Source: an uncultured bacterium (GTDB lineage Bacteria > Patescibacteriota > Minisyncoccia > Phycocordibacterales > UBA9973). Taken from it: a stretch of 64,000 nt of DNA. A program made the position numbers and the translations under genes. The stretch is taken from the NCBI GenBank assembly GCA_937903035.1, contig CALCZP010000004.1, positions 12,570 to 76,569 of the forward strand, written 5' to 3'. Each line of letters begins with the position of its first letter. The stretch's first letter is position 1. This document shows positions 1-16,868 of this stretch, piece by piece. Below the pieces are notes generated by a model, which ran no database searches, was not told the DNA's origin, and worked only from the letters and a program-made list of their open reading frames with translations.

Positions 1-221
1 TTCTCTTTAATAAGAGTAAGTAGTTGGCTTTCACTCATGTCATTTACCAAAGCGACACCTTCAGAAAGAGCACTGTCCATTTTCTTAAGAAATTCTTTAT
101 CATCTTTTCGCCAACGATAAACACTATTACGAGATAGTCCTGTTTTCTCACATGCAACTTGAACTATTGGCACCTTCCGAAGTTCATCAAGGAACTGATC
201 TTGAAATTTATTCTTTTTCAT
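1..221 (-). CDS. Partial HTH protein resembling a phage terminase small subunit. The N-terminus is in the window and the C-terminus runs off the left edge.
   Basis: ATG at 219-221 (minus) gives MKKNKFQDQFLDELRKVPIVQVACEKTGLSRNSVYRWRKDDKEFLKKMDSAL..., an HTH pattern ('ACEKxGISRxTxYRWRK') typical of TerS-like proteins. It overlaps the stop of the upstream methylase by 14 nt. Confidence 0.4.
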   Translation of the reverse strand, partial: MKKNKFQDQFLDELRKVPIVQVACEKTGLSRNSVYRWRKDDKEFLKKMDSALSEGVALVNDMSESQLLTLIKE

Positions 222-1485
222 AGAAGTTCTTGATTACCTGTGCTTTGCGACCAGTTAATTTTTCGTATCTGCGAATTGCCAAATCGCAGAACACAGGTTC
301 TATCTCTAGGGAATAGACCTTTCGCCCAAGTTGTTCTGCACAGATCATGGTGCTTGCGGATCCAGAGAAGGCGTCAAAAATAATGTCTCCTGGTTTGGTG
401 CAACGCATAATAAACTTATGGTGGAGTTCAGGATTTTTACTTGTTGCATGCTCCATTTGATTTGCAGGAAGTCGTTTTGTCGCCCAGATATTTGAGATAT
501 CTTCTAGAAGCTGATTGCCAGTTCCGTAGTCTTTGTTTTGTACTTCGTTGAGATTTTTTACGAGATCAGAAATATATGGAGACCCTTTTGTGCCATACAC
601 GCAATACTCGAGGCACTTATTGAACGCCACGGTAGGTGTCGGCGATGAATTGTTTTTGATCCAGACATTGAGCCGTCTATTCTTAACTTCATGCTCCATA
701 TAGAGTGTTTGAAATACCCACACCCACGCTTCATCGCACCAGAAAGCGACGTGTACGTCCTTAGTAGATACAGCTAGTGAAGACTTAAGAACTTTGCGAA
801 TAAATTCTTTGTATTCTTCAGGTGATTGGTTGTCGTCAAATGTGCCACCATAGTTGGATTTATTGCCAACCCCTTTGTCATATGAAAGTCCGATATTAAA
901 GGGTGGGTCATTATATATAGCGGTAGCTTTATCATCGCCAAATAGTTTTTTAACGGCATTTATATCGGTTGAACTAGCACATAATAATTTGTGACCACCC
1001 ATGACAATCAGATCACCAGGTTTTGTTTGTGGTGTTTTGATTTTCTTTAATTCTTTCTCAACATCGAATTTATCGTCTTTAGTATCTTTTTCTTCGTCCC
1101 AAAACTTAACCAATTCTTTTTCGTTGAATCCAGCGAACTGTAAAAGCTCTAGATCAAATGACTTGAGCTTTTCAAAATCCCATTCGCCGTCGTTAATATT
1201 GCTTTCGATCGCAATCTTGCGACGTTCTTCGTCAGTCAATTTACGATCAGGAATCAACACATTTACTTGCTTAATACCGAGCTGTATCAAAGCAGTTTTT
1301 CTTTGATTACCTGAAATAATCGTATTGTCTGTATCAATAACGATTACACTATGAAAACCACTTTGAATGATCTTCTCTTTTAATTTTTCCATAGCGACCC
1401 GTGAGATTTTTCTTGGATTTTCTTTCCAAGGGAGCAGGTCTGTGACATCTCGAACTCCTGTTGTCCATGAAGGTTTTTTATTCAT
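208..1485 (-). CDS. ParB-like nuclease domain fused to a beta-class amino-DNA methyltransferase (N6-A/N4-C type)
   Basis: The N-terminal region is ParB/Srx-like. Motif IV 'YNDPPFNIG' precedes motif I 'FDAFSGSAST', which is the beta-class order. ParB-MTase fusions are typical of phage and mobile DNA. Confidence 0.8.
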   Translation of the reverse strand: MNKKPSWTTGVRDVTDLLPWKENPRKISRVAMEKLKEKIIQSGFHSVIVIDTDNTIISGNQRKTALIQLGIKQVNVLIPDRKLTDEERRKIAIESNINDGEWDFEKLKSFDLELLQFAGFNEKELVKFWDEEKDTKDDKFDVEKELKKIKTPQTKPGDLIVMGGHKLLCASSTDINAVKKLFGDDKATAIYNDPPFNIGLSYDKGVGNKSNYGGTFDDNQSPEEYKEFIRKVLKSSLAVSTKDVHVAFWCDEAWVWVFQTLYMEHEVKNRRLNVWIKNNSSPTPTVAFNKCLEYCVYGTKGSPYISDLVKNLNEVQNKDYGTGNQLLEDISNIWATKRLPANQMEHATSKNPELHHKFIMRCTKPGDIIFDAFSGSASTMICAEQLGRKVYSLEIEPVFCDLAIRRYEKLTGRKAQVIKNFYEKE

Positions 1486-1659
1486 AGAGTTTTTATTTAA
1501 TTACTTATAAATTTGTAGATGACTAATCTACTAACTCCATGAAATCAAAAAGGTACATAGTCATGTAATCACCACAAAATTGAGTAGTATAAAGAAAAAA
1601 CGCCTATTTAAAGGCGATTTTTCAAAGTTATCCACTCAACTTGGTGTCAACTTAGGAAT

Positions 1660-2292
1660 TTATTCTTTTTCTATGTGGATTTTTGGATTGATACGATACC
1701 CAGATCCTTTCTTTCCTTGAATGAGTTTCGTCTTCTTAGGAAGTCTTAGAGTGTTTATTGCGTAATCATTAAAAGTCTGAACCATTTTTGCTACCGCTTG
1801 TGATGAGGGGCAAGAGAGTATTCTTTGTAAGTCTTTTGTTTGTATATATGCATCTCGGTCAAGTAATGTTTCAAGTAATTTCTTTCTTTTTCCATTTTCA
1901 GTAAGGTCATATGAAAATAGTTTGCCGCCTAAATGTCTATCGAGCGATCCGTTATCTCTGTCGTAGATAATCACGTTACTATCTTGGCTTGAAGATAGAA
2001 GTCGCTTGTGATTTTTATTCAACTCCTGAAGTTCTTCTAAGATGTCATATTCAACAGGGCGACGATATACTATGGCTGGATATTCTACTGGCTCAAAAAG
2101 TTTTGCTTGTTCGCGAACGCGATTCATTTGTTCAATAATTGGTTGTGCAACTTTTTTGATATTTTCAATCATTTCAGCATGTCTTTTACCAATCTCTTGA
2201 AATTGAGAAATCTGCCCCTCACTTAAAGTAGGGGGATGTATTTTTGCCACCAGTTCACCAACAGTCATTGGTTTTTTCTGCTCGTCTGCCAT
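1660..2292 (-). CDS. Hypothetical regulator with a C-terminal OmpR-like winged helix, divergent from the LexA-like gene
   Basis: 210-aa ORF. The C-terminus '...KLIQGKKGSGYRINPKI' resembles a wHTH recognition wing. A hairpin terminator lies downstream. Confidence 0.4.
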   Translation of the reverse strand: MADEQKKPMTVGELVAKIHPPTLSEGQISQFQEIGKRHAEMIENIKKVAQPIIEQMNRVREQAKLFEPVEYPAIVYRRPVEYDILEELQELNKNHKRLLSSSQDSNVIIYDRDNGSLDRHLGGKLFSYDLTENGKRKKLLETLLDRDAYIQTKDLQRILSCPSSQAVAKMVQTFNDYAINTLRLPKKTKLIQGKKGSGYRINPKIHIEKE

Positions 2293-2350
2293 GTAGTTAT
2301 GATAGCAAATACTTGCTTTTTTGTATAGAGTAATTTATACTATTTATACC

Positions 2351-2968
2351 ATGACAAATAACCTAAGTGATAAAGATAAAAAAGCGTTTGCCCTTATCCG
2401 TAACAAGATTGTTCATTATGGCAAAAGTCCTACACTTAGTGAGATTAACGAGGTTACAGGTGGAGCTTCTCCACGATCTGCAAGCCTAGTAATTAATCGA
2501 CTAATCGATGCAGGACTTATAAAGAAAATCGGGCGACAACTTATCCTTACTGGATCACAGACAACAGCTTCAATAAGCACAGTTGATGTTCCGTTGGTTG
2601 GTGCTGTGACTTGTGGTGCTCCTGTTCTTGCCGAAGAAAATATTCAAGCACTAATTCCTGTCTCAACAGGTTTAGCAAAGAAAGGATCGAAATATTTTCT
2701 TTTGCGTGCTATGGGTGACTCGATGAATCTTGCGGGTATTAATAGTGGAGATCTGCTTTTGATTCGACAGCAAGATACAGCAGAAGATAATGAAAAAGTT
2801 GTTGCTCTTATAAATGACGAAGCAACCGTCAAAGTGTTCAAGAAAGCGAATGGTGCCGTTGTACTTCAACCGAAATCAACAAACAAAAACCACAAGCCGA
2901 TTATATTAACAGATAACTGCATCATACAAGGAGTAGTCGTTGCTGTACTTCCTGGTGATCTATATTAA
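2351..2968 (+). CDS. lexA: LexA-type repressor / S24 family autopeptidase (LexA or phage CI-like)
   Basis: The N-terminal domain resembles the LexA DNA-binding domain ('KKAFALIRNKIVHYGKSPTLSEINEVTGGASPRSASLVINRLIDAGLI'). A 'VGAVTCGAP' Ala-Gly cleavage region, the catalytic Ser in 'GDSM' and a Lys in 'KVFKK' are present. The start was moved to the ATG at 2351. Confidence 0.75.
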   Translation: MTNNLSDKDKKAFALIRNKIVHYGKSPTLSEINEVTGGASPRSASLVINRLIDAGLIKKIGRQLILTGSQTTASISTVDVPLVGAVTCGAPVLAEENIQALIPVSTGLAKKGSKYFLLRAMGDSMNLAGINSGDLLLIRQQDTAEDNEKVVALINDEATVKVFKKANGAVVLQPKSTNKNHKPIILTDNCIIQGVVVAVLPGDLY

Positions 2969-2972
2969 AAAT

Positions 2973-3200
2973 ATGGCAAAAAATATTCACACTGTTTACA
3001 ACTCAGAGCGTGGGATGTGGGAAAATAAAAAAGAAGGCTCTTCTTCTCCTGTTTCTTCGCACCACACAAAAGAAAATGCTCTTGATAGAGCAGAAAATAT
3101 TGCTGAAAAAGCAAAGGTCGAACATTTTATTCATGGTAAAGACGGAAAAATCCAGGAGCGTAACAGCTATGGAAACGATCCTTTCCCACCACGGGGTTAA
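2973..3200 (+). CDS. DUF2188 family small protein
   Basis: '...HGKDGKIQERNSYGNDPFPPRG' is the signature C-terminus of DUF2188/YjzC-like proteins. It starts 5 nt after the lexA-like stop and ends 6 nt before the next gene. Confidence 0.6.
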   Translation: MAKNIHTVYNSERGMWENKKEGSSSPVSSHHTKENALDRAENIAEKAKVEHFIHGKDGKIQERNSYGNDPFPPRG

Positions 3201-3206
3201 AACACT

Positions 3207-4130
3207 ATGGCTATTCCGCTTTCTCAACTGACAACATGGTCAAATCAGGGTGCTACTGTTTCAGCAAAAACAACACACGAATCTATTCGGACGGCACTAA
3301 CACACGATCAATCTCCACTTAAAGATCGTATCAGTAACGGCTCGGTAAAAATCTATCTCCAAGGATCGTATAAAAATGATACAAACATTCGAGCAGATAG
3401 CGATGTGGATGTAGTTGTCGAACTAACAACCACATTTGGTCATAATGCACACGAACTTCCTTATGATCAGAAAAATGCTCATGATCAGGCATACAGTAGT
3501 GCTGTTTATGATTGGCAAGATTTACGCAGAGATGTTATCTCTGCTCTGACTAAATATTACGGACTACTATCTGTTGATACAAGTGGTAATAAGTCAATTA
3601 AACTCAAACCTTCTTCAGGAAGGCTAAAGGCTGATATTGTTCCTGTTATAAATTATCGAAAATATGATTATTTTTATGGTACCACTAGCCATAATGCAGA
3701 AGAGGGTGTGAAGTTTTATCATCGCACAACAAATCGCGGAATTATAAATTATCCAGAGCACCACTATCAAAATGGAGTTAATAAAAATTCAGATACTCGT
3801 ACAGGTGGGCGTTTTAAACCAACAGTACGAATTTTCAAGAATATGAGAAACCATCTTGTTGATACAGGTAAACTTGCCGACGGTGTAGCACCATCATATT
3901 TCTTGCAGTCATTAGTTTATAATGTCCCTGATGAGCACTTCAATGGTGATAATTCCACAACCGTGCACGCCGTATTAAAACATCTCTGGTCTGCATTACC
4001 TTTGGGACAATGTGTGTGTCAAAACCATTTTCATGAATTATTTGGTGAAAGCGAGGAGCAATGGAATCAAGATGATGCGGTAAAAACTATTAGTGCTTTT
4101 GTAGAGCTTTGGGATAACTGGAATCAATAA
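3207..4130 (+). CDS. cGAS/DncV-like nucleotidyltransferase (CD-NTase / SMODS domain)
   Basis: 'IYLQGSYKNDTNIRADSDVDVVVEL' matches the [hQT]GS...DxD pol-beta NTase motif. The third acidic residue is in 'KADIVPV', and a helical C-terminal region follows ('PSYFLQSLVYNVP'). Confidence 0.7.
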   Translation: MAIPLSQLTTWSNQGATVSAKTTHESIRTALTHDQSPLKDRISNGSVKIYLQGSYKNDTNIRADSDVDVVVELTTTFGHNAHELPYDQKNAHDQAYSSAVYDWQDLRRDVISALTKYYGLLSVDTSGNKSIKLKPSSGRLKADIVPVINYRKYDYFYGTTSHNAEEGVKFYHRTTNRGIINYPEHHYQNGVNKNSDTRTGGRFKPTVRIFKNMRNHLVDTGKLADGVAPSYFLQSLVYNVPDEHFNGDNSTTVHAVLKHLWSALPLGQCVCQNHFHELFGESEEQWNQDDAVKTISAFVELWDNWNQ

Positions 4131-4132
4131 TT

Positions 4133-4732
4133 ATGCAAAATATACACCCATATTCAATAAATTCTGAAGAACACAAGTATGTATCGCTCTACCTTGCGGT
4201 ATTATCCATATTACTTGCTTGGGGTTTATATCTTTTCTCAAAAAATGTCTTTGTGCTTCCGTGGTGGATTGAGGCTCCTTCGGTGATTGGTTTTTACGGA
4301 ATTTTACATAAGTGGTTCGAGACTAAGTTATGGAGAAATAATTTTATTCGTAAAATTACTAGTATAAAAACTCCTATCGTAGATGGAAATTGGTCTGGAA
4401 CCATAACATCTCATTCAAATCATGCTAACGGTCCAATACAGATTAAGAAATTTTGTATTAAACAAACGTGGACTCATCTACTTATTTATCTAGAAACAGA
4501 AACATCCGAATCTTTCAGTTTTGAGGCATCAATGAATGTTGATGAGTTTGGAACGGCTCGAATACATTATCAATACAGAAACAAACCAAAAGATAATGCT
4601 CCCGAAAGTATGCACATACATGAAGGATCAGCATCTGCAAAACTAGAAGATGAAGGAACGCTTCAAACAGAGTATTACTCAGGTAGAGATCGTAACAATA
4701 CAGGCTCTTTTGAAGTTAAAAAGTTACAATAG
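4133..4732 (+). CDS. Two-transmembrane effector (SLATT / Cap15-like) with a beta-rich C-terminal domain
   Basis: Two hydrophobic helices (LYLAVLSILLAWGLYLF and APSVIGFYGILHKWF) are followed by a ~130-aa soluble domain. The gene starts 2 nt after the CD-NTase stop, so it is in the same operon. Confidence 0.6.
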   Translation: MQNIHPYSINSEEHKYVSLYLAVLSILLAWGLYLFSKNVFVLPWWIEAPSVIGFYGILHKWFETKLWRNNFIRKITSIKTPIVDGNWSGTITSHSNHANGPIQIKKFCIKQTWTHLLIYLETETSESFSFEASMNVDEFGTARIHYQYRNKPKDNAPESMHIHEGSASAKLEDEGTLQTEYYSGRDRNNTGSFEVKKLQ

Positions 4733-4757
4733 ATTGTAACTTTTATAGTCAATCCTG

Positions 4758-4784
4758 TGTCACTTTTGTCACTTTTTATCACTC
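4758..4784 (+). repeat. Three closely spaced direct repeats, GTCACTTTT / GTCACTTTTT / ATCACTCG (candidate iterons or operator)
   Basis: Read directly from the sequence just downstream of the 2TM gene stop. They are followed by TATAAT-like 'gatataat' at about 4796-4803. Confidence 0.4.
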
Positions 4785-4875
4785 GACAAGGGTCGATCTG
4801 ATATAATTAGAAAAGCTAAAAAAGCTTTGTGGTGCAATGAATCCCAAGGTCGCACCACGACTAGGCTCACAAAGC

Positions 4876-4903
4876 AAAAAGCGCTTCGCAAGAGGCGCTT
4901 TTT
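4876..4903. terminator. Rho-independent terminator hairpin, bidirectional
   Basis: AAAAAGCGC-ttcgcaagag-GCGCTTTTT, with T/A runs on both sides. Confidence 0.6.
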
Positions 4904-5095
4904 GCTTTGTGATTTTTTCAGCATATATGTTGAAAAAAGAATCGAACCGGGAAAGGGTCGGGAAACGGGAGTTTCCCGTGGAGGAAGGCAGGCGAAGCCG
5001 TTGGAAAACCGTGGGTTTCCAAAGTGTGAGATAATGAAATGTCCCCGTAGGGTCACTATTTAGAGAGCCCTCGAGAAGCGTCATAATAAATTACT

Positions 5096-5785
5096 ATGAA
5101 AAGACAAAACAACATACAAGCACAAATTAAAAGAGCCTCAGAAATTTTACCGAAAATCGAACAAGAATATAATAACTCTCTACACAAAAAAGAAGTTAGT
5201 GACGATTTAAAATTGGATATTCAAACTTTTTTAGGACACTTAAGATCTGCCTTAGATTACTTATCAAAGGATATAATTGAAAAATATTGTCCTAATGTAG
5301 ATAAATCATATTTCCCAATTAGGCATGACAAAAATTCTTTTATGAAAATGATGTCCGAATCTTATCCGGAGCTTATTTCACATTCTCCTGCTCTATACTC
5401 ATATCTGGAATCAATACAGCCATATACTAATTCGGATAACTCATGGCTAGCTCATTTCAATAAACTTAATAATGAAAACAAACATAACGATTTAGTTGAA
5501 CAAATACGAACAGAAACCGAGAGGGTTAATGTGGAGATTAATGGGGGTGGTAGTGTAAATTGGGACCCTTCGGCAGTTAGATTTAGTGGACCAGGTGTTT
5601 ATATAGGAGGAGTTCCTGTGGATTTTAATACTCAAATACCAGTACAATCAAATACTCAAACTGTAACTATCCAAACATGGATTGATTTCAAATTTAGTGA
5701 TATTGAAACTTCTGCCCTTCACTTACTAAAAGAGTCACTAAGCAAAATAAAAGATATAAACACTGAGATTGTTAAATTTCTATAA
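5096..5785 (+). CDS. Hypothetical protein (229 aa), first gene of a low-GC cassette
   Basis: Long ORF in a very AT-rich segment. The N-terminal half looks helical and the C-terminal half is Gly/Val-rich. No motif was recognised. Confidence 0.5.
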   Translation: MKRQNNIQAQIKRASEILPKIEQEYNNSLHKKEVSDDLKLDIQTFLGHLRSALDYLSKDIIEKYCPNVDKSYFPIRHDKNSFMKMMSESYPELISHSPALYSYLESIQPYTNSDNSWLAHFNKLNNENKHNDLVEQIRTETERVNVEINGGGSVNWDPSAVRFSGPGVYIGGVPVDFNTQIPVQSNTQTVTIQTWIDFKFSDIETSALHLLKESLSKIKDINTEIVKFL

Positions 5786-5802
5786 TTATTGGAAATAATA
5801 TT

Positions 5803-6468
5803 ATGATTGGCGCAATATTAAAACTTTCATATAACCAAATTGGAGAAAATACTATTATTGGGGGTATATGTGGGACGTGTTTTGCTATTGATAGACATAG
5901 GTTACTAACAGCTGAACATATTATTTCTAAAAATAGTTTTACACCGGACAATGGCTTTGAGAAAGTGCGGTACTGGGCATTACTTGAGTCTGGTCAAAAT
6001 ATTGAGATATATAAAAATAACATAGAAAGTAAAAGAGAAAAAGATCTTAGTATTATAAAAACATCTAAATGGATAAATGGTAAAGTTCTAAAAGTAATAA
6101 ATTCTGAGACAAATATTAACTCAACATGTGGGAATTATGGATACACAGCAAGAACAATGCCTGACATAGATGGTGCTTGGAGTAAAAGAAAATTCAATAT
6201 TAAGTTCCATTCTTTACAAGAAAACAGAATTCATTCAAGCGGTTATGTTAAATCAATAAAAAATGCAGAAGTTAATACTAATGATTTAAATTTAAAATCA
6301 AGAATCCTAGAACTTAGTTATGGCGGTCGAGAAGGTATGTCGGGCGGCTGTTTACAAAATGAAAATAATGAAATAATTGGTTTGATGTCATTTGGGTTAC
6401 CTCCAGATCAAGCAGTAAAAAATATTCTATTCGCAGTTGATATAAGAGAAATTATAAATTATTTATAG
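5803..6468 (+). CDS. Trypsin-like (S1/chymotrypsin fold) serine protease with no signal peptide
   Basis: Catalytic triad context: His in 'LLTAEHII', Asp in 'DLSIIKT', Ser in 'GMSGGCL'. There is no N-terminal hydrophobic segment. Confidence 0.65.
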   Translation: MIGAILKLSYNQIGENTIIGGICGTCFAIDRHRLLTAEHIISKNSFTPDNGFEKVRYWALLESGQNIEIYKNNIESKREKDLSIIKTSKWINGKVLKVINSETNINSTCGNYGYTARTMPDIDGAWSKRKFNIKFHSLQENRIHSSGYVKSIKNAEVNTNDLNLKSRILELSYGGREGMSGGCLQNENNEIIGLMSFGLPPDQAVKNILFAVDIREIINYL

Positions 6469-6551
6469 CGCTCGAGAAGGGTCGAAGTGCAATACTAAAA
6501 AGCACCAGTAAACCTTACGGGGTAAAGTAACACTTGGTTCTATCTCGAGAA

Positions 6552-6601
6552 GGCTCACAAATACAAAACACCTCTTACGAGGTGTTTTGTATTTGTGAGC
6601 C
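6552..6601. terminator. Perfect inverted repeat of about 22 bp with a 5-nt loop, acting as a bidirectional terminator between convergent genes
   Basis: GGCTCACAAATACAAAACACCTC-ttacg-GAGGTGTTTTGTATTTGTGAGCC. A related hairpin with the same core, ACACCTCTT[AG]CGAGGTG, occurs at 17168-17214. Confidence 0.6.
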
Positions 6602-6632
6602 GGAGGGTAGTGTACAAAATAATTACTTAAGA

Positions 6633-7280
6633 TTAATTACTATATTTAATCTGCTGGTACTCTGCCATTAATGCATTATAAATATCTGTATATTTACTAT
6701 AAATATCATTTAATTCAGCATTTCGTTGTTCTATTGTTGAAATACCTGGAGCACTTTTCACAGCTGCCGAATCCTTTGCATATTTTGCATTAAGATTAGC
6801 AATCTGTAGATTTATAGCATCAAGCTTTTTTTGTTTATCAGCTATTTTTGCGTTTATAACATCTTGTTCTCTTTGTGCTTGTTTTTTTACAGTTTCTGCA
6901 TCCTTTAGCGCTTTTAATTCGATCAACCTATCTTCTTCTGTCTTAATCGAAGCAGCTCTCGCCAATTCATCTACTGTTTGTTTAACAACTAAGGCGTCGC
7001 TATCTTTTGCTTTAGATGTTACTTTTGTTTGTGCCTTAATAGCTGCTGAATTATCAACTTGAGAAGCAGTAAGAGATTCAGCGACCGGAGCAACTGAAGT
7101 ATTTTTAAGCGTTTTTTCAAGTTCATTAATTCTATTGTTTAACTCCTGTGTTTTAACATCTATTTTTGGAGTAAACGTCCAGTTATTGAACCATGTTTTT
7201 GGTTGCCACCAAGCAGCGTTTGTAACCGTAGGAAATGCTAAAAAAAATCCTAGAAATAATAGTGAAATTAATTTTTTCAT
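6633..7280 (-). CDS. Secreted Ala/Lys/Gln-rich coiled-coil protein
   Basis: Signal peptide MKKLISLLFLGFFLAFPTVTNA. The rest is a low-complexity, helix-forming sequence. Confidence 0.5.
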   Translation of the reverse strand: MKKLISLLFLGFFLAFPTVTNAAWWQPKTWFNNWTFTPKIDVKTQELNNRINELEKTLKNTSVAPVAESLTASQVDNSAAIKAQTKVTSKAKDSDALVVKQTVDELARAASIKTEEDRLIELKALKDAETVKKQAQREQDVINAKIADKQKKLDAINLQIANLNAKYAKDSAAVKSAPGISTIEQRNAELNDIYSKYTDIYNALMAEYQQIKYSN

Positions 7281-7430
7281 ACTTAAAAGTAATTATTAAA
7301 TGCCTAATCTCTTAATTATGCTACCAGATTGATTTTAGTCAATCATTTAAGTATTTAGATATAAGATTGTTTCAATTTGCTCCTAATTTGGTCGCAAAAA
7401 AAAGAAGCACCACTTAGTGCTTCTTTATGC

Positions 7431-8243
7431 TTAAGCCATAACACGTTTTTTGGAAGGATATAGACTTTTTGCTCTCTGTATATAGAGTTTTGTAACATCA
7501 ACATCCAGATGATCACCAGGTCTGCCTGATTTGGTCAACTGGCTTTGAGCATCAATACTCACCCCATATCGTTTTACAAGCTCAGCTACTCTCCACACCG
7601 TCTTGGGACCGAGAGCTCCGGCAACTGTAAACTGCAGTTCACTGGTAAGGTTACAAATACCATCAATATATCCCTCAACACCTGGAAGATCTATTGCGTA
7701 GCCTTCCCCGCCAGATGCGTCAATGAGTACATGAGAAATAATACCAACATAGTGCTTCACTTCATGAGCAATTTTTATCGGATCCTCATTGTGCATATAC
7801 ATTGCATCTCTTCCAATCTGAAGGATAAGATCAATGTCAGGACATTTTTTCTTGAATGCTTCAAGCTCAGCAGGATCTGGCCATATCATGTCGAGCTGTA
7901 AAGCTTTCATGTTGGGACCACAAAGATCTACTACTGATGAAAGCTCTGCACATAGATGAAATCCCCGATCTGCATCATAATTTGCATAATGCACAGAGTT
8001 TACTATGCGACAATCTCGAACACTGAAAATATCTTTCAATGTTGTAACTGATGGATAGACACTTGCATGCTTTGTTGGCTTATCATGAAGTATCTTGTGA
8101 CTGGTCATAGCGCCAACCATAAACTGAGGGGTACTTTCATCAAAACCAGGAAGCACTTTCCATACTTCCATAACCTGCTCACCTGACTGAAATCCACAAG
8201 CACCAATGTAGGTACCTAATTTTTTTGTTTGTTTTTGTTGCAT
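7431..8243 (-). CDS. TIM-barrel protein of the TrpF (phosphoribosylanthranilate isomerase)-like family
   Basis: The C-terminus 'GVSIDAQSQLTKSGRPGDHLDVDVTKLYIQ' resembles the PRAI 'GVDVSSGVE..pG.KD' motif. No other trp genes are nearby. Confidence 0.4.
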   Translation of the reverse strand: MQQKQTKKLGTYIGACGFQSGEQVMEVWKVLPGFDESTPQFMVGAMTSHKILHDKPTKHASVYPSVTTLKDIFSVRDCRIVNSVHYANYDADRGFHLCAELSSVVDLCGPNMKALQLDMIWPDPAELEAFKKKCPDIDLILQIGRDAMYMHNEDPIKIAHEVKHYVGIISHVLIDASGGEGYAIDLPGVEGYIDGICNLTSELQFTVAGALGPKTVWRVAELVKRYGVSIDAQSQLTKSGRPGDHLDVDVTKLYIQRAKSLYPSKKRVMA

Positions 8244-8366
8244 ATGATGTACTATTTTGTTTTTCTTTACAGTACTACAGAATTAACAAAAGTCAAATAA
8301 TCTACCGAGGTCAAAAAACCATTACGTAACAATATAAAAACCACCGAATATTCGGTGGTTTTATTT

Positions 8367-9383
8367 TTATAATGCTTTTTCGATTTCAATAAGCTTTTTA
8401 ACTCCATTGTAGAGCTGCTCATAAATCTCACGCTCAGTCACTCCTAAGCGACGTTTATTTGAGATATCATAGATACCATCTGATGATTCAGAATGTTCTC
8501 CATGTACACCACGGATTGATAATCCGAGTGTGCCACAAATTGCTTTGAAATTTTGACTGTTTGAAAACTTTGGAATCCTAATATGTACTGATGCACGCAT
8601 TGCAGTTCCAAGGTTTGTCGGACAAGTCGTGTGATACCCACGAAGATCATCAAATGCAAAGTTGATTTTCTCATTGATAAAATTCAATGCTGTTGCCAAT
8701 CGGGTAAACACTTCAGCGATGTCAGCTCCTGGCTGCATACTTATGATACGCATACTGTCTTCTTCTGAAACCCAGACAAGGAATTTCTTGTCGTCAGAAA
8801 AGAAAATTCCACGATTCTTTGGCCAATCACGATTTACACCGGCACTTTCCAAGAAACGGTCGCCTTGCTTGAACAAAAAATGATCCTCAACCATTTTGGC
8901 ACGAACTTCTTCGCTCATACCATCAAGTGGAAAATACTCACCCTTAAGTGTTCCTGGGAGTTGTTTCAATGCTTCAATAATTTCGGATTCCATAGCAGCA
9001 CGATCTTCTGCTGAGATAGCAGAAGGAAAAGCATACTTTGCAAAATTACGACCAACACGAATACGGGTTGATACAACATAATTACCTTCAGGGTCTAAGT
9101 TTTCAACAGGAAGACCGGTGAGTGAGAAATCACTCTTATGCCCGCTCATATCATAATTATGATACTCCTTGATAACAGGATCAAAAAGAGAGGCAAGTAT
9201 AGTATACGATTCAGGATCTCCTGCATATACACCAATACTGGAGTCCTGGTTATCAATACCAGACTGAATTGCCTTTTGAAGAGTCCAGCCATGTGGTGTA
9301 ACAGCAGTAGCTAGCTGTTCTTGTACTTGTTCAGTACAATGCTTTTTCATTAACATGTCAGGGTTTTGTGTGTTTTTTGTCAT
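8367..9383 (-). CDS. Arginine kinase-type phosphagen (ATP:guanido) kinase, full two-domain form
   Basis: Active-site 'CPTNLGTAMRASVH' and 'KKFLVWVSEEDSMRIISMQPGADIAEVF' are classic AK/CK motifs. An N-terminal guanidino-substrate domain is present ('SGIDNQDSSIGVYAGDPESYTILASLFDPVIKEYH'), so this is not a McsB-like protein. It has its own terminator. Confidence 0.8.
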   Translation of the reverse strand: MTKNTQNPDMLMKKHCTEQVQEQLATAVTPHGWTLQKAIQSGIDNQDSSIGVYAGDPESYTILASLFDPVIKEYHNYDMSGHKSDFSLTGLPVENLDPEGNYVVSTRIRVGRNFAKYAFPSAISAEDRAAMESEIIEALKQLPGTLKGEYFPLDGMSEEVRAKMVEDHFLFKQGDRFLESAGVNRDWPKNRGIFFSDDKKFLVWVSEEDSMRIISMQPGADIAEVFTRLATALNFINEKINFAFDDLRGYHTTCPTNLGTAMRASVHIRIPKFSNSQNFKAICGTLGLSIRGVHGEHSESSDGIYDISNKRRLGVTEREIYEQLYNGVKKLIEIEKAL

Positions 9384-9482
9384 AAAGAACGTATTTTAAT
9401 ATAAATTTTTATATAATACTAACTTATAAAGTTTTTTTGTCAATTACACCATAAATCCCCGTCTTGTGAACGGGGATTTTTT

Positions 9483-9803
9483 CTACATCTTTTTTTTCTT
9501 TCTGAGATCAAAGTAGTTCGTGATTTTTATAAACTCAACTTCTGCTTCACATCCTAACTCTTCGAGTACCTCAATGACCTGATGAACGATGGCAAATTCA
9601 CTACTAAACATACGCAGGAATGGGCGATCTGTTTTTTCGGTATCAATTACTTTAGTCTTAATTTCAGAAAATGTTACGTTTTTGTAATCATCTTCTGAAA
9701 AAACTTTTTTTAAAGCATCGAGTAGATTATCACGAAGACTCATAAAGCCTGAATGAGAATAACCATGAAATTCAATTAAAGGAGCATAACTAGAGTGTTG
9801 CAT
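9483..9803 (-). CDS. Hypothetical protein
   Basis: 106-aa ORF with a downstream hairpin terminator (AAATCCCCG...CGGGGATTT). Confidence 0.4.
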   Translation of the reverse strand: MQHSSYAPLIEFHGYSHSGFMSLRDNLLDALKKVFSEDDYKNVTFSEIKTKVIDTEKTDRPFLRMFSSEFAIVHQVIEVLEELGCEAEVEFIKITNYFDLRKKKKM

Positions 9804-9854
9804 AGTATACTATTTTTCAAAACCATATATGTATTTTTTAAATTTGTCAATAAT

Positions 9855-11351
9855 CTAGTCTTGGCGAGGCTTCAGAAGTGGAAAGATTTGTGATTCGCGT
9901 ACTGGCTTGTCGAGGAGGAATGAGAAGAGTCGCTCTGATACACCAAAGCCAAATGCTGGCGGCATACCATACTCCATCGCCTCGACATATTCCATATCTG
10001 CCATTTGTGCCTCATCATCCCCCGCATCACGGAGATCTTGCTGCTTCATAAAGCGCTCCTTTTGATCTACCGGATCATTGAGTTCACTAAAGCCTTTGCC
10101 GACTTCACTCCCCGCAATGATGACTTGGAAGCGTTCTACAGTCTGGGGGTTAGTACGATTTTTCTTTGCAAGTGGCTCGAGATAGACAGGAACGTTAACA
10201 AGGAATCCTGGACCACCGAGTGATTTGCGCACTTTTTTCCAGAGCAGATCCACTCCACGCTCAACAGAGATAGCTTTCTTGTCATACTCAATACCATGTT
10301 TGATAAGTGCAGCTTCGATTTCATCTACTGATGTCGCAAGTGCATCAATACCATAATGCTCCGCAATGATTGCGACAAAGTCATATGTCACCCAATCAGC
10401 ATTAAGGTCCACAGTAAATCCTTTGATGGTAAATGTTGTCGTACCAAACGTTTTTTCAGCGATTTCTCGATAGAGTCTCTTGATCATTTCCATTCCTTTC
10501 AAGTAGTCACTGTATGCCATATAGAACTCCATCTGTGTGTAGTCCTGGAGATGTTCGGCAGACATGCCTTCGTTGCGGAAAATGCGACCGATCTCAAAGG
10601 TGCGAGGAATACCTGCCACAAGGAGCTTCTTTTGCCAAAGCTCACCTGCTGAGATACGAAGGAAGACCTCCATATCAAGTGCATTATGATGTGTCACAAA
10701 TGGTCGAGCCTCTGCACCACCTGTTGTATTTTCAAGCACCGGTGTTTCAACTTCAACAAAGTCTTGTGCAAGCAAAAATGATCGCATCGTATTCCAAAAG
10801 ACTGAGCGCTTTTTCACCATCTCAGCCACATCAGCGTTTCCAAGAATATCGAGATATCGCTTGCGAAGCTTTTCTTCAGGATCTTCGATACCGTACCACC
10901 CATCAGGAATAGGACGCAGACTTTTCGCAAGCATATGCCAACTTTTTACAAACAAACTCTGTGCACCGCGTTGTGTCGTGTATGCAGTACCGATGACTTC
11001 GATAAAGTCTCCCGTATCAGCAGTATCAGTAAAGAGCGCATAGAGTGCACTATCCATCCCATCAGACTTAAATACGAGCTGTGTCTTTGCAGTTCCATCA
11101 AAGAGATCGACAAATGCGAGGGCACCTTGTCCACGTTTGGACATGATGCGACCAGCAAGCGTGATTTCATCCTTCCCTGCTTCGTATAAACTGAAACGAT
11201 CAATAAACGTCGCAACCGTATCAGTACGATGTGATGCGGCAGGATAGGACTCAATACCTTTTTCTTTGAGGAGCTCAATCTTTTTCAGTCGGTCGTTCCG
11301 GAGTTCTTCAATGGATGCCATATCCGGAGATTGTACTAAAAAATAAGCCAA
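9855..11351 (-). CDS. lysS: Lysyl-tRNA synthetase, class II
   Basis: Motif 2 'FRNEGMSAEHLQDYTQMEFYMAY', an OB-fold N-terminus and class II architecture. Confidence 0.9.
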   Translation of the reverse strand: MAYFLVQSPDMASIEELRNDRLKKIELLKEKGIESYPAASHRTDTVATFIDRFSLYEAGKDEITLAGRIMSKRGQGALAFVDLFDGTAKTQLVFKSDGMDSALYALFTDTADTGDFIEVIGTAYTTQRGAQSLFVKSWHMLAKSLRPIPDGWYGIEDPEEKLRKRYLDILGNADVAEMVKKRSVFWNTMRSFLLAQDFVEVETPVLENTTGGAEARPFVTHHNALDMEVFLRISAGELWQKKLLVAGIPRTFEIGRIFRNEGMSAEHLQDYTQMEFYMAYSDYLKGMEMIKRLYREIAEKTFGTTTFTIKGFTVDLNADWVTYDFVAIIAEHYGIDALATSVDEIEAALIKHGIEYDKKAISVERGVDLLWKKVRKSLGGPGFLVNVPVYLEPLAKKNRTNPQTVERFQVIIAGSEVGKGFSELNDPVDQKERFMKQQDLRDAGDDEAQMADMEYVEAMEYGMPPAFGFGVSERLFSFLLDKPVRESQIFPLLKPRQD

Positions 11352-11360
11352 AAAGCACCT

Positions 11361-12428
11361 TTATATCCCTTCTTTCTTGAGTTGCTCGATCACTTCCTTT
11401 GCATGCTTGGAGAGTTTCTCAGGAAGGCGGATGTCGAGTTTGATGATGAAGTTGCCGCGACGAGAGCCATGTGGCACACCTTTGCCTTTGAGGGTGATCA
11501 TCTCGCCAACTGTTGTACCAGACGGGATCGATACTTTCTCCACACCATCAAGTGTTTCGATATCGTACTCAGTACCGAGGAGTGCGTCAGTGAGCTTGAT
11601 CGGGAGATTGATGATGAGATCATTCCCCTGACGAGCAATAGTCTTGTGCGTAGACACACTCACGCGAACATAGAGATCGCCTGACTGGCCACCCTTGATC
11701 GCTTCGCCAAGTCCAGTAAGTCTGAGCGTCTCGCCATGTTGAATACCAGTAGGCACATTGATCTTGATCGTGCGAGGTTCGTTGACCACACCCTTACCTT
11801 TACAGGTATCACACCGTGTCTTTGGAATCTTGCCAATACCATCACATGTTGGGCAGGTTTGTGTTGTTTGGATAGAGCCGAGAATGGTACGCTGTACTGC
11901 CTTAACGACACCACTACCGTGACACTGGCCACATATATCGACATGCGTACCAGGCTTTGCACCATCACCCTTACACGTCGTACAGGTCGAAGGTTTAGTG
12001 ACACGGATTTCCTTTTCAACACCGAATATTGACTCTTTAAATGTGAGACTGATAGAGGTCTGGAGATCTGCTCCGCGACGAGCCTTGGGACGGCGATTGC
12101 CACCACCAAACATGTCACCAAACATGTCACCGAGATCAAACTCAAATCCGCCCGCATTTTGCCCAAAGCCACCGAAATCAAATCCGCCAAAGCCTTGACC
12201 ACCTCCACCACCCATTTGTGGCCCATCCGCTCCAAACTGATCGTATGATGCACGCTTCTGATCGTCAGAAAGTGTCTGATATGCCTGGTTCACTTCCTTG
12301 AACTTGCTGTCATCTCCGCCGTTTTTGTCCGGGTGGTGCTTGTGCGCAAGCTTATGAAAAGCTTTCTTGATTTCGTCCTTGGAGGCGCTTTTGCTGACGC
12401 CCAATGTCTCGTAATAGTCTTTTGCCAT
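11361..12428 (-). CDS. dnaJ: Chaperone DnaJ
   Basis: J-domain with HPD ('HKHHPDKNGG'), a G/F-rich linker and four CxxCxGxG zinc-finger repeats. Confidence 0.9.
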   Translation of the reverse strand: MAKDYYETLGVSKSASKDEIKKAFHKLAHKHHPDKNGGDDSKFKEVNQAYQTLSDDQKRASYDQFGADGPQMGGGGGQGFGGFDFGGFGQNAGGFEFDLGDMFGDMFGGGNRRPKARRGADLQTSISLTFKESIFGVEKEIRVTKPSTCTTCKGDGAKPGTHVDICGQCHGSGVVKAVQRTILGSIQTTQTCPTCDGIGKIPKTRCDTCKGKGVVNEPRTIKINVPTGIQHGETLRLTGLGEAIKGGQSGDLYVRVSVSTHKTIARQGNDLIINLPIKLTDALLGTEYDIETLDGVEKVSIPSGTTVGEMITLKGKGVPHGSRRGNFIIKLDIRLPEKLSKHAKEVIEQLKKEGI

Positions 12429-12508
12429 AGGGCTATAATAGCATAATCATGCTGCTATTGACAATACTATATTTATATGATATTATATACTTAATAAACA
12501 AACAAATT

Positions 12509-12634
12509 ATGAAAAAGATATTCAGTGTTCTTTTAGTTGCCGTGATAGTAAGTATTGCATTCAGCAGCTGTGCTGGTGAAAAAACGATGACCGTGTTTGG
12601 CAATACTGTCAAAGGCAACAAATGCAAAGGATAA
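12509..12634 (+). CDS. Small putative lipoprotein or secreted peptide (41 aa)
   Basis: MKKIFSVLLVAVIVSIAFSSC... is a signal peptide ending in a lipobox-like Cys. A hairpin terminator follows immediately (AAATCCCCTTCTTTTCAGAAGGGGATTT). Confidence 0.3.
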   Translation: MKKIFSVLLVAVIVSIAFSSCAGEKTMTVFGNTVKGNKCKG

Positions 12635-12685
12635 ACCCTTTCAAAGTAATGCAAATCCCCTTCTTTTCAGAAGGGGATTTATTTA

Positions 12686-12763
12686 TTATCGGTGACGCAT
12701 TGAGACAGTCTTGCCGTCCTTCTTGCGCTTGTTCTTAGCAGCGATTTTGCGTTTCTTGTTCAT
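12686..12763 (-). CDS. Tiny, highly basic peptide (25 aa), possibly a ribosomal-protein-like peptide
   Basis: Minus-strand ORF MNKKRKIAAKNKRKKDGKTVSMRHR with 13 of 25 residues K/R/H. It lies between dnaJ and the downstream hypothetical gene and is too short to appear in the ORF track. Confidence 0.3.
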   Translation of the reverse strand: MNKKRKIAAKNKRKKDGKTVSMRHR

Positions 12764-12829
12764 ATGTCCTAGCACTATAGCATAGAAATCCAAAAGAAAA
12801 AGCCCTGATACGACAGGGCTTAAGATTTT

Positions 12830-13243
12830 TTAAATCAGTTTAACTTTATGAGCTAACTCGTAAGTTTTTTCTGCATCCTCCTTTGAGAGGTCAAATTCAC
12901 TAGTCCAATGCATGATCCATTCTTCTTTCGGGGAATGCATTGTTGGTAAATATGATCCTGAAAGAAACATGCCGTCTTTTTCAGCTAAACCTGCTTGAGT
13001 GAGTTTGTTTTTTACTTCCTTTAAAGCTTTTCTAATTTGTCTTTCAAAATCAGCATGAGGTGTAAATTTTTGTAAGCCCTCAGCAATTTCTTTTGGAGAA
13101 ACGATAATTAAATCAGCAACCGTTATAACTTTTACTACTTGTCGTTTATCGCCGGCGATGAGCCAATTTATAAATTCAAATGGTAAACAGCTTTTCTTTA
13201 GTTTAGTAATTTTGCAAACCTCAGAAGTAAGTATATTTTTCAT
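12830..13243 (-). CDS. Hypothetical protein
   Basis: 137-aa ORF in the dnaK/dnaJ locus with no recognisable motif. Confidence 0.45.
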   Translation of the reverse strand: MKNILTSEVCKITKLKKSCLPFEFINWLIAGDKRQVVKVITVADLIIVSPKEIAEGLQKFTPHADFERQIRKALKEVKNKLTQAGLAEKDGMFLSGSYLPTMHSPKEEWIMHWTSEFDLSKEDAEKTYELAHKVKLI

Positions 13244-13348
13244 TGTTTATTATTTTGGTGAAGAACTTTCTATATAATAGCACATATTTATATATACGTC
13301 AATAACACAAAAAGCCCTATTTCTAGGGCTTTTTGGAGGTTTTTTCGA

Positions 13349-15244
13349 TTATTTGGTTTCTTCACCTGATGCGTCGCGGACATTTTCCGTACCATCATCT
13401 GAGATTTCAGTTGGCTGAGGTTCTGCGGCAGTAGACTGTTCGCCATTCTTGGAGATATGCTCACCAATCTTTTGCATTTCCATTGAGAGCGCATGAGTCG
13501 CGGCTTCGAGTGCAGCCTTGTCATCCCCTTCCTTTGCTTTCTTCAACTCATCAATCTTAGCCTGTACTCCAGACTTGATGTCATCAGTGATAGCAGCTGC
13601 ATGTTCGATGAGTGCCTTCTCTGCTGAGAAGATCATCATATCTGCAGTGTTCTTCGCATCCACGAGCGCCTTCTTGGCTTCGTCTTCGGTTGCATGGAGT
13701 TCGGCATCTTTTTTCATACGCTCGATATCATCTGCAGTGAGACCTGATGATGCTTCGATACGGATGGACTGCTCTTTGCCAGTACCCTTGTCCTTGGCCT
13801 TTACATTGAGGATACCGTTGGCATCGACATCAAAGGTGACTTCGATTTGTGGCATGCCGCGTGGTGCTGGTGCAATACCATCGAGGATAAATCGTCCGAG
13901 GGACTTGTTGTCAGCTGCCATTGGGCGCTCACCTTGCGTGATATGAATCTCAACTGACGGCTGATTGTCGACCGCAGTTGAGAATACCTGACTCTTTGAT
14001 GATGGGATCGTTGTGTTGCGCTCAACGAGCTTGGTTGCTACACCACCCATCGTCTCGATACCGAGTGAAAGCGGGATCACATCAAGAAGGAGCACATCGC
14101 GCACATCACCCTGGAGCACACCACCCTGCACTGCAGCACCAAGTGCTACCACTTCGTCCGGGTTGATTGAGCGATTTGGTTCCTTGCCAAAGAGTTTTTG
14201 CACCTCTTCGACGATCTTTGGCATGCGAGTTTGCCCACCGACGAGAATGATCTCGTTGATATCAGACATTGCAAAGCCTGATGCTTCGACAGCACGCTTG
14301 GTGATCTCGATAGAGCGAGTCACGTATTCATCAGCGATACTTTCGAGCTGCGCGCGAGACATCTTAAGGAGCAAGTGCTGCGGACCTTCGGCGGTCGACG
14401 TAATGAACGGAATGTTGATCTCGGTCTCCATGGTTGTTGAGAGCTCGATCTTTGCTTTTTCAGCAGCCTCGTCCAGTCGCTGCTTTGCGAGCGGATCATT
14501 CATCACATCCACACCGGATGACTTTTTGAATTCATCAGCAATCCACTGCATAATCTTGAGATCAATATCACGACCTCCCATCATTGAGTCACCATCAGTA
14601 GACTTTACTTCGATGACATCGTTTGAGATCTCGAGTACTGACACGTCAAACGTACCACCACCGAGGTCGTAAATCACAACCTTTTCTTCCTTTTTAGTAT
14701 CAAGACCATATGCAAGCGCTGCTGCAGTCGGCTCGTTGATGATCCGCTTCACATCGAGACCTGCGATCGCACCGGCGTCCTTGGTCGCCTTTCGCTGTGC
14801 ATCGTTGAAGTATGCAGGCACGGTGATGATCGCTTCGGTAACTTTCTCACCGAGCTTTGCTTCAACGTCTGCCTTGATCTTCTGAAGGATCATTGCTGAT
14901 ACTTCCTCTGGACGATAGTCCTTGTCGCCGAGATGTACGAGAATGCCGCCATCAGGACCTTTTGAAACCTTGAACGGCGAGCTCTTGATCACCGCATCCA
15001 TGCCATGATCGTCGTACTGGTGACCCATGAAGCGCTTGATACCATAAATGGTATTTTGCGGGTTGGTCACTGCCTGACGCTTGGCAAGGAGCCCAACGAG
15101 GCGGTCGCCGCCTTTGCCCACCGCAACGATAGACGGAGTTGTACGTGCACCTTCGATGTTTTCAATAATTTTTGGCTGCCCACCTTCGATGATGGCGACA
15201 GCTGAGTTTGTAGTTCCAAGGTCAATTCCAATGATTTTAGCCAT
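13349..15244 (-). CDS. dnaK: Chaperone DnaK (Hsp70)
   Basis: '[13 protein letters not shown]', '[10 protein letters not shown]' and the usual C-terminal lid, for a 631-aa protein. A terminator hairpin lies at about 13311-13334. Confidence 0.95.
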
Positions 15245-15420
15245 ACTATTTAAACAAATATAAGTCTAATAAATCGGTCATAAGAAACATCTCTTTTCGA
15301 AAAGCCAGACCCAAGCCTAACCCTTTTCTCAAAAAGATATTTCTTATTCCCTCTATTTTACGTGTATTCCGCGAACGCGAAATACTTGTACAAAGAGCAG
15401 TATAGTGCTAGCATTTTCAC

Positions 15421-15954
15421 ATGTCAACAAGTGGCGACAAAAACTCCGGCTATTCCAAGAAAATCCTCAAGCTTCTGGGCTCAAAACGGGCTATTTCCGA
15501 GTCTGAACTCACCGAATTGATGGATGTCTCGGGTCCGAGCAAGTATGCCCTCACACGCTCCCTCAAAGGCCTCTCTGACACCGGCCTCGTCGAGACCCAT
15601 CACTCAGGTCGCCAGACCTATGCGAGCCTCACCAAGGATGGCAAACGCAAGCTTCACAGTATCTCACTTGAGTCAGATGCCGCGCTCGTTGATCCCAACT
15701 GGGATGGCAAATGGCGTATCGTAATGCTCGACCTCCCCGAAGATCGCAAGACTGAACGTGAAGGCCTCCGCTACCTCCTAAAAAAAGCAGGGTTTGTGTG
15801 TCTGAAAAATGCAGTGTGGATTTCACCACAACCGTTTGAGCACCTCTTTATGAATATTAAAAAAGACCTCGGTCTGACGACTGAGATCATGATATTTGTG
15901 ACCGATACACTTGATAGTGCAACAGAAGAAGCGTTTAAAGAAATAGTGAAATAA
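15421..15954 (+). CDS. PaaX-like winged-helix transcriptional regulator
   Basis: 'WDGKWRIVMLDLPEDRKTEREGLRYLLKKAGFVCLKNAVWISP' matches the PaaX C-terminal signature. It is divergent from dnaK and sits inside the heat-shock locus. Confidence 0.55.
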   Translation: MSTSGDKNSGYSKKILKLLGSKRAISESELTELMDVSGPSKYALTRSLKGLSDTGLVETHHSGRQTYASLTKDGKRKLHSISLESDAALVDPNWDGKWRIVMLDLPEDRKTEREGLRYLLKKAGFVCLKNAVWISPQPFEHLFMNIKKDLGLTTEIMIFVTDTLDSATEEAFKEIVK

Positions 15955-15999
15955 AAAAACCCTTACAAAAGTAAGGGTAATGTTTTTAACGGTAGTTAA

Positions 16000-16851: not shown

Positions 16852-16868
16852 AAAAGCCCCGAAGGGCT

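Follow-up and report, generated by a model that had tools for sequence, protein, structure and literature searches.

The left edge of a 64,000-nucleotide window (positions 12,570 to 76,569 of contig CALCZP010000004.1, assembly GCA_937903035.1, from an uncultured bacterium of the Patescibacteriota) carries the 5' part of a gene for a TerS-like small terminase subunit, a gene for a ParB-domain/DNA methyltransferase (MTase) fusion, a gene of 210 codons (ORF210), a LexA/CI-like repressor gene transcribed divergently from ORF210, and a cassette of three defence genes (Table 1). In the initial annotation these genes were taken for the edge of a prophage or satellite extending beyond the window, with the defence operon as a possible prophage-encoded moron. 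Comparison with the source contig and with related contigs showed that positions 1-4871 of the window are the right-hand third of a discrete, site-specifically integrated mobile element of ~15.4-15.9 kb, namely the end with the control genes, the beginning of the packaging genes and the defence cargo.

The part of the element lying beyond the edge was read from the source contig, ENA ERZ650244 NODE_1 (405,211 bp; L001), in which the orientation is reversed: window 1-11485 is the reverse complement of L001 1-11485, with 100% identity. In L001 orientation, attL is followed by the leftward genes Cap15, CD-NTase, DUF2188 and LexA-like repressor. Then come the rightward genes for ORF210, ParB-MTase, TerS (135 aa), TerL (495 aa), a diversity-generating retroelement (DGR) made up of target, template repeat, Avd and reverse transcriptase, a small transmembrane (TM) protein, a type III Res/Mod pair and a large serine recombinase; in relatives the attR side adjoins tRNA-Glu. 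The leftward continuation proposed in the annotation was thus borne out. The recombinase, within whose gene L001 ends, has Resolvase, Recombinase and Zn_ribbon_recom domains, and the type III-like restriction-modification (R-M) pair consists of a ResIII helicase-nuclease (774 aa) and an N6_N4 MTase (569 aa). The DGR (L001 13279-16143; RVT_1 2e-28, bAvd 1e-16) has as its target the 302-aa protein encoded after TerL; the 3' end of the target gene (variable repeat) differs from the template repeat in 23 of 139 positions, 21 of the 23 at adenines of the template, and the DGR looks active.

The ends of the element were defined by three independent copies: L005 (IMG/VR contig IMGVR_UViG_3300009666_001272, ~94% identical in nucleotide sequence to the element of the window), L016 (a GTDB contig of 15,856 bp labelled Ca. 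Nomurabacteria) and L026. L005 contains the same gene string flanked by tRNA-Ser/trxB/ftsZ on one side and by tRNA-Glu on the other. L016 is the element alone. It starts exactly at L001 position 6615 (window 4871), its other end lies 5 nt inside the tRNA-Glu of L005, and both ends coincide with the limits of homology to L001 and L005; it has no terminal overlap and so shows no sign of circularity. L026 has the same limits and likewise adjoins tRNA-Glu. The pentamer TGTGA (GGTGA in L026) is present at both ends of the element. In the window it reads TCACA on the plus strand (4867-4871) and lies within an arm of the hairpin 4867-4912, which probably served the target tRNA gene as its terminator before it was displaced.

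An empty site was predicted from L005 by joining its left flank, TGTGA and tRNA-Glu. This sequence was found by exact search in L096 (JGI metagenome contig Ga0265294_10016615), both flanks of which are homologous to those of L005 and from which the element is absent. For L005, attB, attL and attR with a TGTGA core at the 3' end of tRNA-Glu could therefore be reconstructed, and the precise junctions, short core and empty attB are those of a serine-integrase element; the genome of the window supplies attL only. Insertion is precise and took place between the 3' end of tRNA-Glu and its terminator hairpin, as expected of a serine integrase whose crossover core is short. The presence/absence polymorphism, together with mosaic recombinase alleles, indicates recent mobility. 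L096 also differs from L005 by another insert of ~2.8 kb (L096 4271-7073, with ORFs of 440, 157 and 125 aa) between the att site and trxB; variation downstream of tRNA-Glu is therefore not confined to the element. The left flanks of L001 and L026, otherwise non-homologous, share the motif GGTTCGATTC, which might be a tRNA fragment.

These comparisons bear on the simplest alternative, that the genes at the window edge are ordinary chromosomal DNA comprising a host LexA, the methylase of a chromosomal R-M system and a host regulator. Beyond the generic types of the domains, nothing speaks for it. The genes inside the unit are missing from the empty site, the unit can assemble as a contig of its own (L016), and its GC content is low relative to most of the window. 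Moreover, the gene order is an MTase with no adjoining restriction endonuclease gene, followed by TerS and TerL. An ordinary chromosomal origin, which the annotation had named as the finding that would refute it, is itself refuted by these observations; we regard it as extremely improbable.

Table 1. Features of the element in the window and of the neighbouring large terminase gene. Positions are those of the window unless L001 is named; numbers after domain or family names are E-values.
Feature	Position	Strand	Remarks
Large terminase subunit (TerL)	L001 11675-13162	+ in L001	495 aa; phrog_38 3.5e-79; Terminase_6C 3e-6; just outside the window
TerS-like small terminase gene, 5' part	221..<1	-	73 of 135 codons in the window; full gene (135 aa) in L001
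Orphan ParB-domain/beta-class N6_N4 MTase fusion	1485..208	-	425 aa; matches to Pfam N6_N4_Mtase, phrog_498, phrog_620
Conserved control region separating ORF210 from the operon of ParB-MTase, TerS and TerL	1486..1659	-	Alignment of 11 relatives, motif search, terminator scan
ORF210, putative activator or switch protein	2292..1660	-	210 aa; AlphaFold2 model and Foldseek
Divergent promoter/operator region, ORF210-repressor	2293..2350	.	58 bp; palindrome GTATA-N8-TATAC at 2323-2340
Self-cleaving LexA/CI-type repressor (predicted)	2351..2968	+	205 aa; Peptidase_S24 6e-27; LexA_DNA_bind 3e-4
DUF2188 protein, first gene of the cargo operon	2973..3200	+	Pfam DUF2188 5e-19; PADLOC candidate PDC-S16 1.3e-27
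CBASS CD-NTase (oligonucleotide cyclase)	3207..4130	+	PADLOC Cyclase 3e-106; SMODS/CD_NTase_C
Cap15 two-TM CBASS effector	4133..4732	+	Cap15_CD_rec 2e-27; Cap15_TM 2e-8; PADLOC 2TM effector 4e-57
Conserved element end (attL side)	4709..4871	.	Homology with L005, L016 and L026 ends here

TerL has a Walker A/B ATPase and a C-terminal RNase H-like nuclease, the features expected of a large terminase subunit. The TerS-like ORF (MKKNKFQDQFLDELRKVPIVQVACEKTGLSRNSVYRWRKDDKEF…) matches phrog_4044 'terminase small subunit' (1.4e-9), and its Pfam HTH and Sf6_terminase matches are weak. In all related loci it directly precedes TerL. The first 14 nt of the TerS-like gene overlap the end of the MTase gene, and its stop is 2 nt ahead of TerL. 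The partial TerS-like helix-turn-helix gene of the annotation was thus recovered in full, and the upstream DNA contained, besides TerL, the large serine recombinase. Capsid genes, the remaining expectation for a full prophage, were missing: neither portal, capsid, protease, tail nor lysis genes were found in the stretch from attL to the recombinase of L001, L005 and L016, and primase, helicase and Rep domains were absent from all ORFs of the element. The suggestion of a prophage or satellite could therefore be retained in its second half only, as a satellite-like, capsid-less element.

The same architecture recurs widely. A GTDB scan seeded by a TerL alignment gave matches in at least 113 species genomes, from which 80 loci were retained. 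Synteny was examined in these loci, in ~10 IMG/VR loci and in L102, with gene labels assigned by offline blastp. A core of ParB-MTase, TerS, TerL and serine recombinase was found in at least 95 loci, with TerL identities ranging from 37% to 100%. ParB-MTase, TerS and TerL are co-oriented wherever the sequence extends far enough. A large serine recombinase lies downstream of TerL in 61 of 79 loci, starting within 250 bp of the TerL stop in 36 of the 61, and IMG/VR loci L006-L010, L097, L098 and L102 have the same core synteny. Most records carry labels of the candidate phyla radiation (CPR), namely Nomurabacteria, Paceibacterota, Parcubacteria, Saccharibacteria, Komeilibacteria, Moraniibacteriota and others; ~16 have other, probably unreliable labels of metagenome-assembled genomes (MAGs). 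At least 17 loci are on contigs longer than 100 kb. An exhaustive HMMER search placed 452 clusters at 50% identity in the TerL clade (E<=1e-30), and a word-indexed search at least 3,450 clusters at 90% identity (E<=1e-10). Every member with readable context has the capsid-less architecture. Capsid, portal and tail genes are missing from ~95 related loci, no portal or capsid family appeared in the family-wide cargo census, and loci without a downstream recombinase, when inspected for portal and capsid genes, contained host or unrelated genes only. This family appears to be undescribed: a literature search for a terminase/serine-recombinase element of Patescibacteria, of incomplete coverage, found none.

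Some members depart from the basic plan. Two tandem TerL paralogues are present in L093 (8188-11221) and L097 (3035-6318), and a second, ParB-less MTase gene lies between ParB-MTase and TerS in L010, L066, L071, L072, L080, L083, L087, L095, L097 and L098. L024 contains two family elements in tandem (7086-21491), and differing copies occur within one MAG in the pairs L025/L027, L030/L071 and L075/L087, which suggests repeated integration or co-residence. The capsid-less L005, L006-L010, L097, L098 and L102 are listed in IMG/VR as viral genomes, presumably owing to TerL.

The core genes are under strong purifying selection. Pairwise Nei-Gojobori estimates of the ratio of non-synonymous to synonymous substitution rates (dN/dS) among L001, L005 and L016 were 0.004-0.034 for TerL, 0.012-0.026 for TerS, 0.021-0.033 for ParB-MTase, ~0.05 for ORF210, 0.04-0.08 for the repressor and 0.023 for the serine recombinase. 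TerL of L001 and that of L016 are separated by 137 synonymous and 3 non-synonymous changes. In 76 intact TerLs the Walker A residues K73/S74/T75, the Walker B residues D175/D176, the catalytic E178 and the nuclease residues D319, E385, D453 and D456 are invariant. Apart from interruptions by contig ends, no more than 2 of ~80 TerL genes are disrupted.

The low dN/dS values and the invariant catalytic residues exclude passive decay. They weigh heavily against the idea that the element is a decaying prophage remnant which lost its portal-to-lysis region and retains the terminase genes as functionless relics, as do the recurrence of one reduced architecture in different species, the precise presence/absence polymorphism and the mosaic recombinase alleles. 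The gene order is indeed that of a serine-integrase temperate phage minus the morphogenesis and replication modules, and the sole archaeal precedent, NitKor-E1, which has TerS, TerL and integrase only, was read as a relic (PMC6563490). On balance a remnant is improbable.

The ParB-MTase fusion was confirmed. Its ParB-like N-terminal domain matches phrog_620 (2e-21; Pfam ParB_N only 0.0096), the N6_N4_Mtase domain (3e-27) spans aa 189-404, and the full protein matches phrog_498 (4e-71). Motif IV (DPPF, ~aa 190) precedes motif I (FSGSAST, ~aa 383), the order characteristic of beta-class MTases. The nearest solved structure is that of CcrM (6pbd, 1.3e-9). The ParB N-terminus, the motif order and the position upstream of the terminase genes are shared with the ParB-fused beta-class MTases of the phage 'ParB-Tls locus'. 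Full-length homologues were found in 221 phage records, e.g. upstream of TerL in Streptococcus phage Javan191.

ORF210 has no match in Pfam, Trans_reg_C included, or in PHROG, and a profile search of PDB sequences gave nothing meaningful. From 75 database homologues, none with a Pfam domain, a 34-sequence alignment was made for AlphaFold2. The model (pLDDT ~90 over aa 105-210) was compared with PDB by Foldseek, and almost all matches were to winged-helix domains of OmpR/PhoB type (CovR 3rjp, E 1.8e-3, TM-score 0.71; CadC, ToxR, AdeR and PhoB). According to the model, the C-terminus is a DNA-binding domain of this type, in agreement with the winged helix noticed initially. The predicted N-terminus is a helical hairpin without a receiver (phospho-acceptor) domain; ORF210 is therefore not a two-component response regulator. 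In the family, the slot just upstream of the MTase gene is occupied by ORF210 relatives in 13 loci and in 25 by an unrelated family of ~135 aa that matches neither Pfam nor PHROG. A LexA-like gene lies upstream on the opposite strand in ~40% of loci.

The repressor gene most likely starts at the ATG at 2351 rather than at the TTG at 2321. In an alignment of the protein with E.coli LexA, Cys88-Gly89 coincided with the cleavage site, and the residues Ser124 and Lys161 were invariant. With a DNA-binding N-terminus, a Cys-Gly site and a Ser/Lys dyad, it is predicted to belong to the self-cleaving S24 proteins of the LexA/CI/UmuD group. The palindrome GTATA-N8-TATAC in the divergent promoter region occurs once in the 64-kb window, against 0.04 occurrences expected. 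Its arms are invariant and its spacer is variable in 11 relatives, and it overlaps a promoter-like site of ORF210 (TATACA-17-TATCAT, 2327..2299). This is the form that an operator bound by a LexA-type dimer would be expected to have.

The second control region, downstream of ORF210, is highly conserved and contains a short terminator-like hairpin (1601-1616), palindromes at 1515-1531 and 1554-1567, and a perfect direct repeat AAGTTGA-N4-AAGTTGA (1636-1653, minus-strand reading). The 11-bp periodicity of the repeat is the geometry used by OmpR/PhoB proteins. Both copies are altered in the divergent relative L033. The repeat is not statistically compelling alone, ~1 chance match being expected if two mismatches are allowed. 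It could be a site for activation by ORF210 or, equally, a TerS/pac site.

The defence cassette behind the repressor is a type I cyclic-oligonucleotide-based antiphage signalling system (CBASS), consisting of CD-NTase and effector without ancillary Cap2/3 or HORMA genes, and preceded by the DUF2188 gene. The gaps between the repressor, DUF2188, CD-NTase and Cap15 genes are 2-6 nt, and co-transcription of the repressor with the cassette may be inferred from them. In the 94%-identical L005, two TIR-like proteins and a 2-TM protein take the place of CBASS behind the repressor, which itself has 98.5% aa identity. CBASS is thus cargo of the element, lying inside its boundaries, operonic with the repressor and swapped in a close relative, which supports the initial suggestion of a moron. 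In other members the genes chained behind the repressor code for ThsB-TIR (7 proteins), ThsA-Macro, caspase, KAP NTPase, 8xMP, and the CBASS components HORMA, E1/E2/JAB and SMODS.

The loci also vary between TerL and the recombinase. This second slot is filled by the DGR and the type III R-M pair in the element of the window, and in the family by SNase nucleases, MmeI, ResIII, Shedu SduA, KAP and Ltp/Sie superinfection-exclusion genes. The element thus has two exchangeable defence hotspots. Related DGRs occupy the same slot in several loci, e.g. L006, L016, L026, L034, L081 and L082, and DGR genes occur elsewhere within L010, L037, L039 and L095. DGRs of CPR bacteria (clade 2) were classed as 'cellular' (PMC8144416); at least some of them ride on this mobile element.

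The reading we favour, with moderate confidence, is that of a helper-dependent, satellite-like integrative element with defence cargo. In the integrated state the LexA-like repressor, co-transcribed with the defence cassette, would bind GTATA-N8-TATAC and silence the ORF210 promoter. RecA-stimulated self-cleavage on DNA damage, or a signal from a helper phage, would remove the repressor, and ORF210 would then switch on the operon of ParB-MTase, TerS and TerL, which are translationally coupled. Excision of the element would fall to the serine recombinase and a directionality factor, and TerS and TerL would recognise its DNA and pump it into procapsids of the helper phage. During packaging ParB-MTase would methylate the DNA and so protect it against restriction in the next host. 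The analysis itself establishes the gene identities, the boundaries, the insertion polymorphism, the exchange of cargo, the synteny across the family, the purifying selection and the intact catalytic motifs; the regulatory cascade, excision and packaging into helper capsids are inferred from these.

Several results weigh against this scheme. When 50,697 phage records were searched by tblastn for a helper-phage TerL, identities did not exceed 27%; the closest TerLs from complete or cultured phages, those of the Mu-like SuMu and 3927AP2, are at ~25-27%. No TerL of the clade was found beside a portal gene in IMG/VR, in pattern-seeded scans that may miss divergent relatives; scans with TerL, with the TerL alignment and with two distant representatives detected only capsid-less elements or unrelated phages. 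No recognisable replication module, capsid-size redirection gene or recombination directionality factor was identified in the element, and no described satellite family combines TerS and TerL while lacking head genes (PMC10085698). L001 ends before the right junction of the copy in the window, which is therefore not readable. The reconstructed attP junction (…GCACTCGACTC-TGTGA-GCCTAGTCGTGG…) was not found by exact search of IMG/VR, JGI metagenome contigs and the fetched loci, a negative made weak by exact matching and assembly bias. Finally, the putative ORF210-binding repeat lies between the ORF210 stop and its terminator-like hairpin, an odd place for a promoter. It is because of the missing helper, portal-linked TerL, attP and replication module that our confidence in the satellite model is no higher.

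The same gaps would be accounted for if the element were an integrative defence island that moves otherwise, e.g. by natural transformation and serine-recombinase integration, and whose terminase does not package it but, for example, competes for procapsids or cuts the phage concatemers of invading phages. Both variable slots hold almost wholly anti-phage or superinfection-exclusion genes, and the strong selection on TerL demands a function that is not necessarily self-packaging. Yet TerS, TerL and ParB-MTase are still arranged and translationally coupled exactly as in a packaging operon of phages, and a methylase guarding outgoing DNA makes little sense beside a purely defensive nuclease. As far as a literature search could tell, no terminase is known to serve as a defence system on its own. 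We consider such an island unlikely, though clearly less so than a remnant.

The element, interpreted as satellite-like, belongs to no defined satellite family. It resembles the phage-inducible chromosomal islands (PICIs), including the Staphylococcus aureus pathogenicity islands (SaPIs), in site-specific integration, a size in the 8-16 kb range, a divergent repressor, a TerS of its own and defence-gene hotspots. A further likeness is that operon I of SaPIs is under LexA control. The integrase of the element is a large serine recombinase, whereas PICI models have a tyrosine integrase (PMC10085698). The AlpA/MerR/Stl regulator, primase-replicase and capsid-morphogenesis genes of the PICI core (PMC10085698) are absent, the regulators of the element being LexA-like and OmpR-like. 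In capsid-forming PICIs TerL is always accompanied by capsid, portal, protease and head-tail adaptor genes (PMC10085698), in contrast to the element, where it is accompanied by none of these. Marine virion-encapsidated integrative mobile elements (VEIMEs) have TerS homologues and are presumed to use the TerL of a helper (PMC9618062).

The closest precedent is NitKor-E1 of Ca. Nitrosopumilus koreensis, in which adjacent TerS and TerL genes are the only Caudovirales-like genes and are accompanied by an integrase and defence-type genes (PMC6563490). Krupovic et al. (2019), who described it, remarked that no terminase had previously been seen in a non-viral element, and to them its role was 'enigmatic' (PMC6563490). 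NitKor-E1 is a single thaumarchaeal case with a tyrosine integrase, whereas the present family has ~95 loci under purifying selection, a serine recombinase and ParB-MTase. The latter links the family to the ParB-Tls locus of phages, in which ParB-MTase lies directly upstream of the terminase and is proposed to couple DNA modification to packaging (PMC6536676). Such loci or ParB-fused orphan MTases are known from Paracoccus, Sinorhizobium, Wolbachia WO and Streptococcus prophages. The ParB-MTase of the element is at most 29% identical to phage homologues, and the phage locus continues with portal/head genes, that of the element with cargo and recombinase. The position of an abortive-infection-type system immediately downstream of and co-oriented with the repressor, in a slot that close relatives fill differently, is also seen in lambda cI-rexAB, in prophage repressor-linked morons and in hotspots of P4-like satellites; the element differs from these in that its repressor is a LexA-like winged helix plus S24 and its cargo a type I CBASS after DUF2188.

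No satellites had been reported from Patescibacteria as of 2025, when it was stated to be unknown whether satellites reach the viruses of CPR bacteria (bioRxiv 10.1101/2025.02.15.638363). Very little is known of the mobile elements of Patescibacteria or of the relations between their phages, hosts and satellites. We tentatively propose that the family is a new class of phage satellites, the first proposed for Patescibacteria/CPR, or, if there is no helper, a case of a terminase recruited to a non-virion function. If the former is true, satellites with their own terminase and no head genes pirate whole procapsids of CPR phages and ferry defence systems and DGRs from one of these episymbionts to another. 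The family, which is recognisable by its four-gene core and carries CBASS, Thoeris-like, Shedu, R-M and superinfection-exclusion genes as well as DGRs, would explain the spread of defence systems and DGRs among CPR lineages. The TerL clade and the att sites provide a concrete handle for finding CPR phages. The family also casts doubt on the rule that a terminase gene means a virus, and detection pipelines using terminase as a hallmark will misclassify it.

Some features of the adjoining DNA were recorded. The element is adjoined by a low-GC stretch (~4872-9800) holding a gene for a phosphagen/arginine-kinase-type protein (8367-9383, minus strand; ATP-gua_PtransN and ATP-gua_Ptrans), which is unusual among CPR-like genomes and may be a horizontal acquisition. 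An ORF-free, GC-rich segment (4925-5075) separates the end of the element from ORF229; its minus strand folds much better than shuffled sequences (z -3.15, 0 of 200) and its plus strand does not (z +0.33). Only sub-threshold hairpin matches and no family were found for it in Rfam; the minus strand is a candidate for a small structured RNA. Positions 5096-6601 comprise ORF229, with a weak match to phrog_13652, and a gene for a trypsin-like protease, whose nearest PADLOC matches are to protease domains in RT-Protease_XI, LmuA and HamA. Behind these two genes stands a perfect hairpin (6552-6601) with arms of 23 nt, which starts with GGCTCACAAA like the hairpin at the element junction. The whole may be a second defence pair or a trace of an older insertion.

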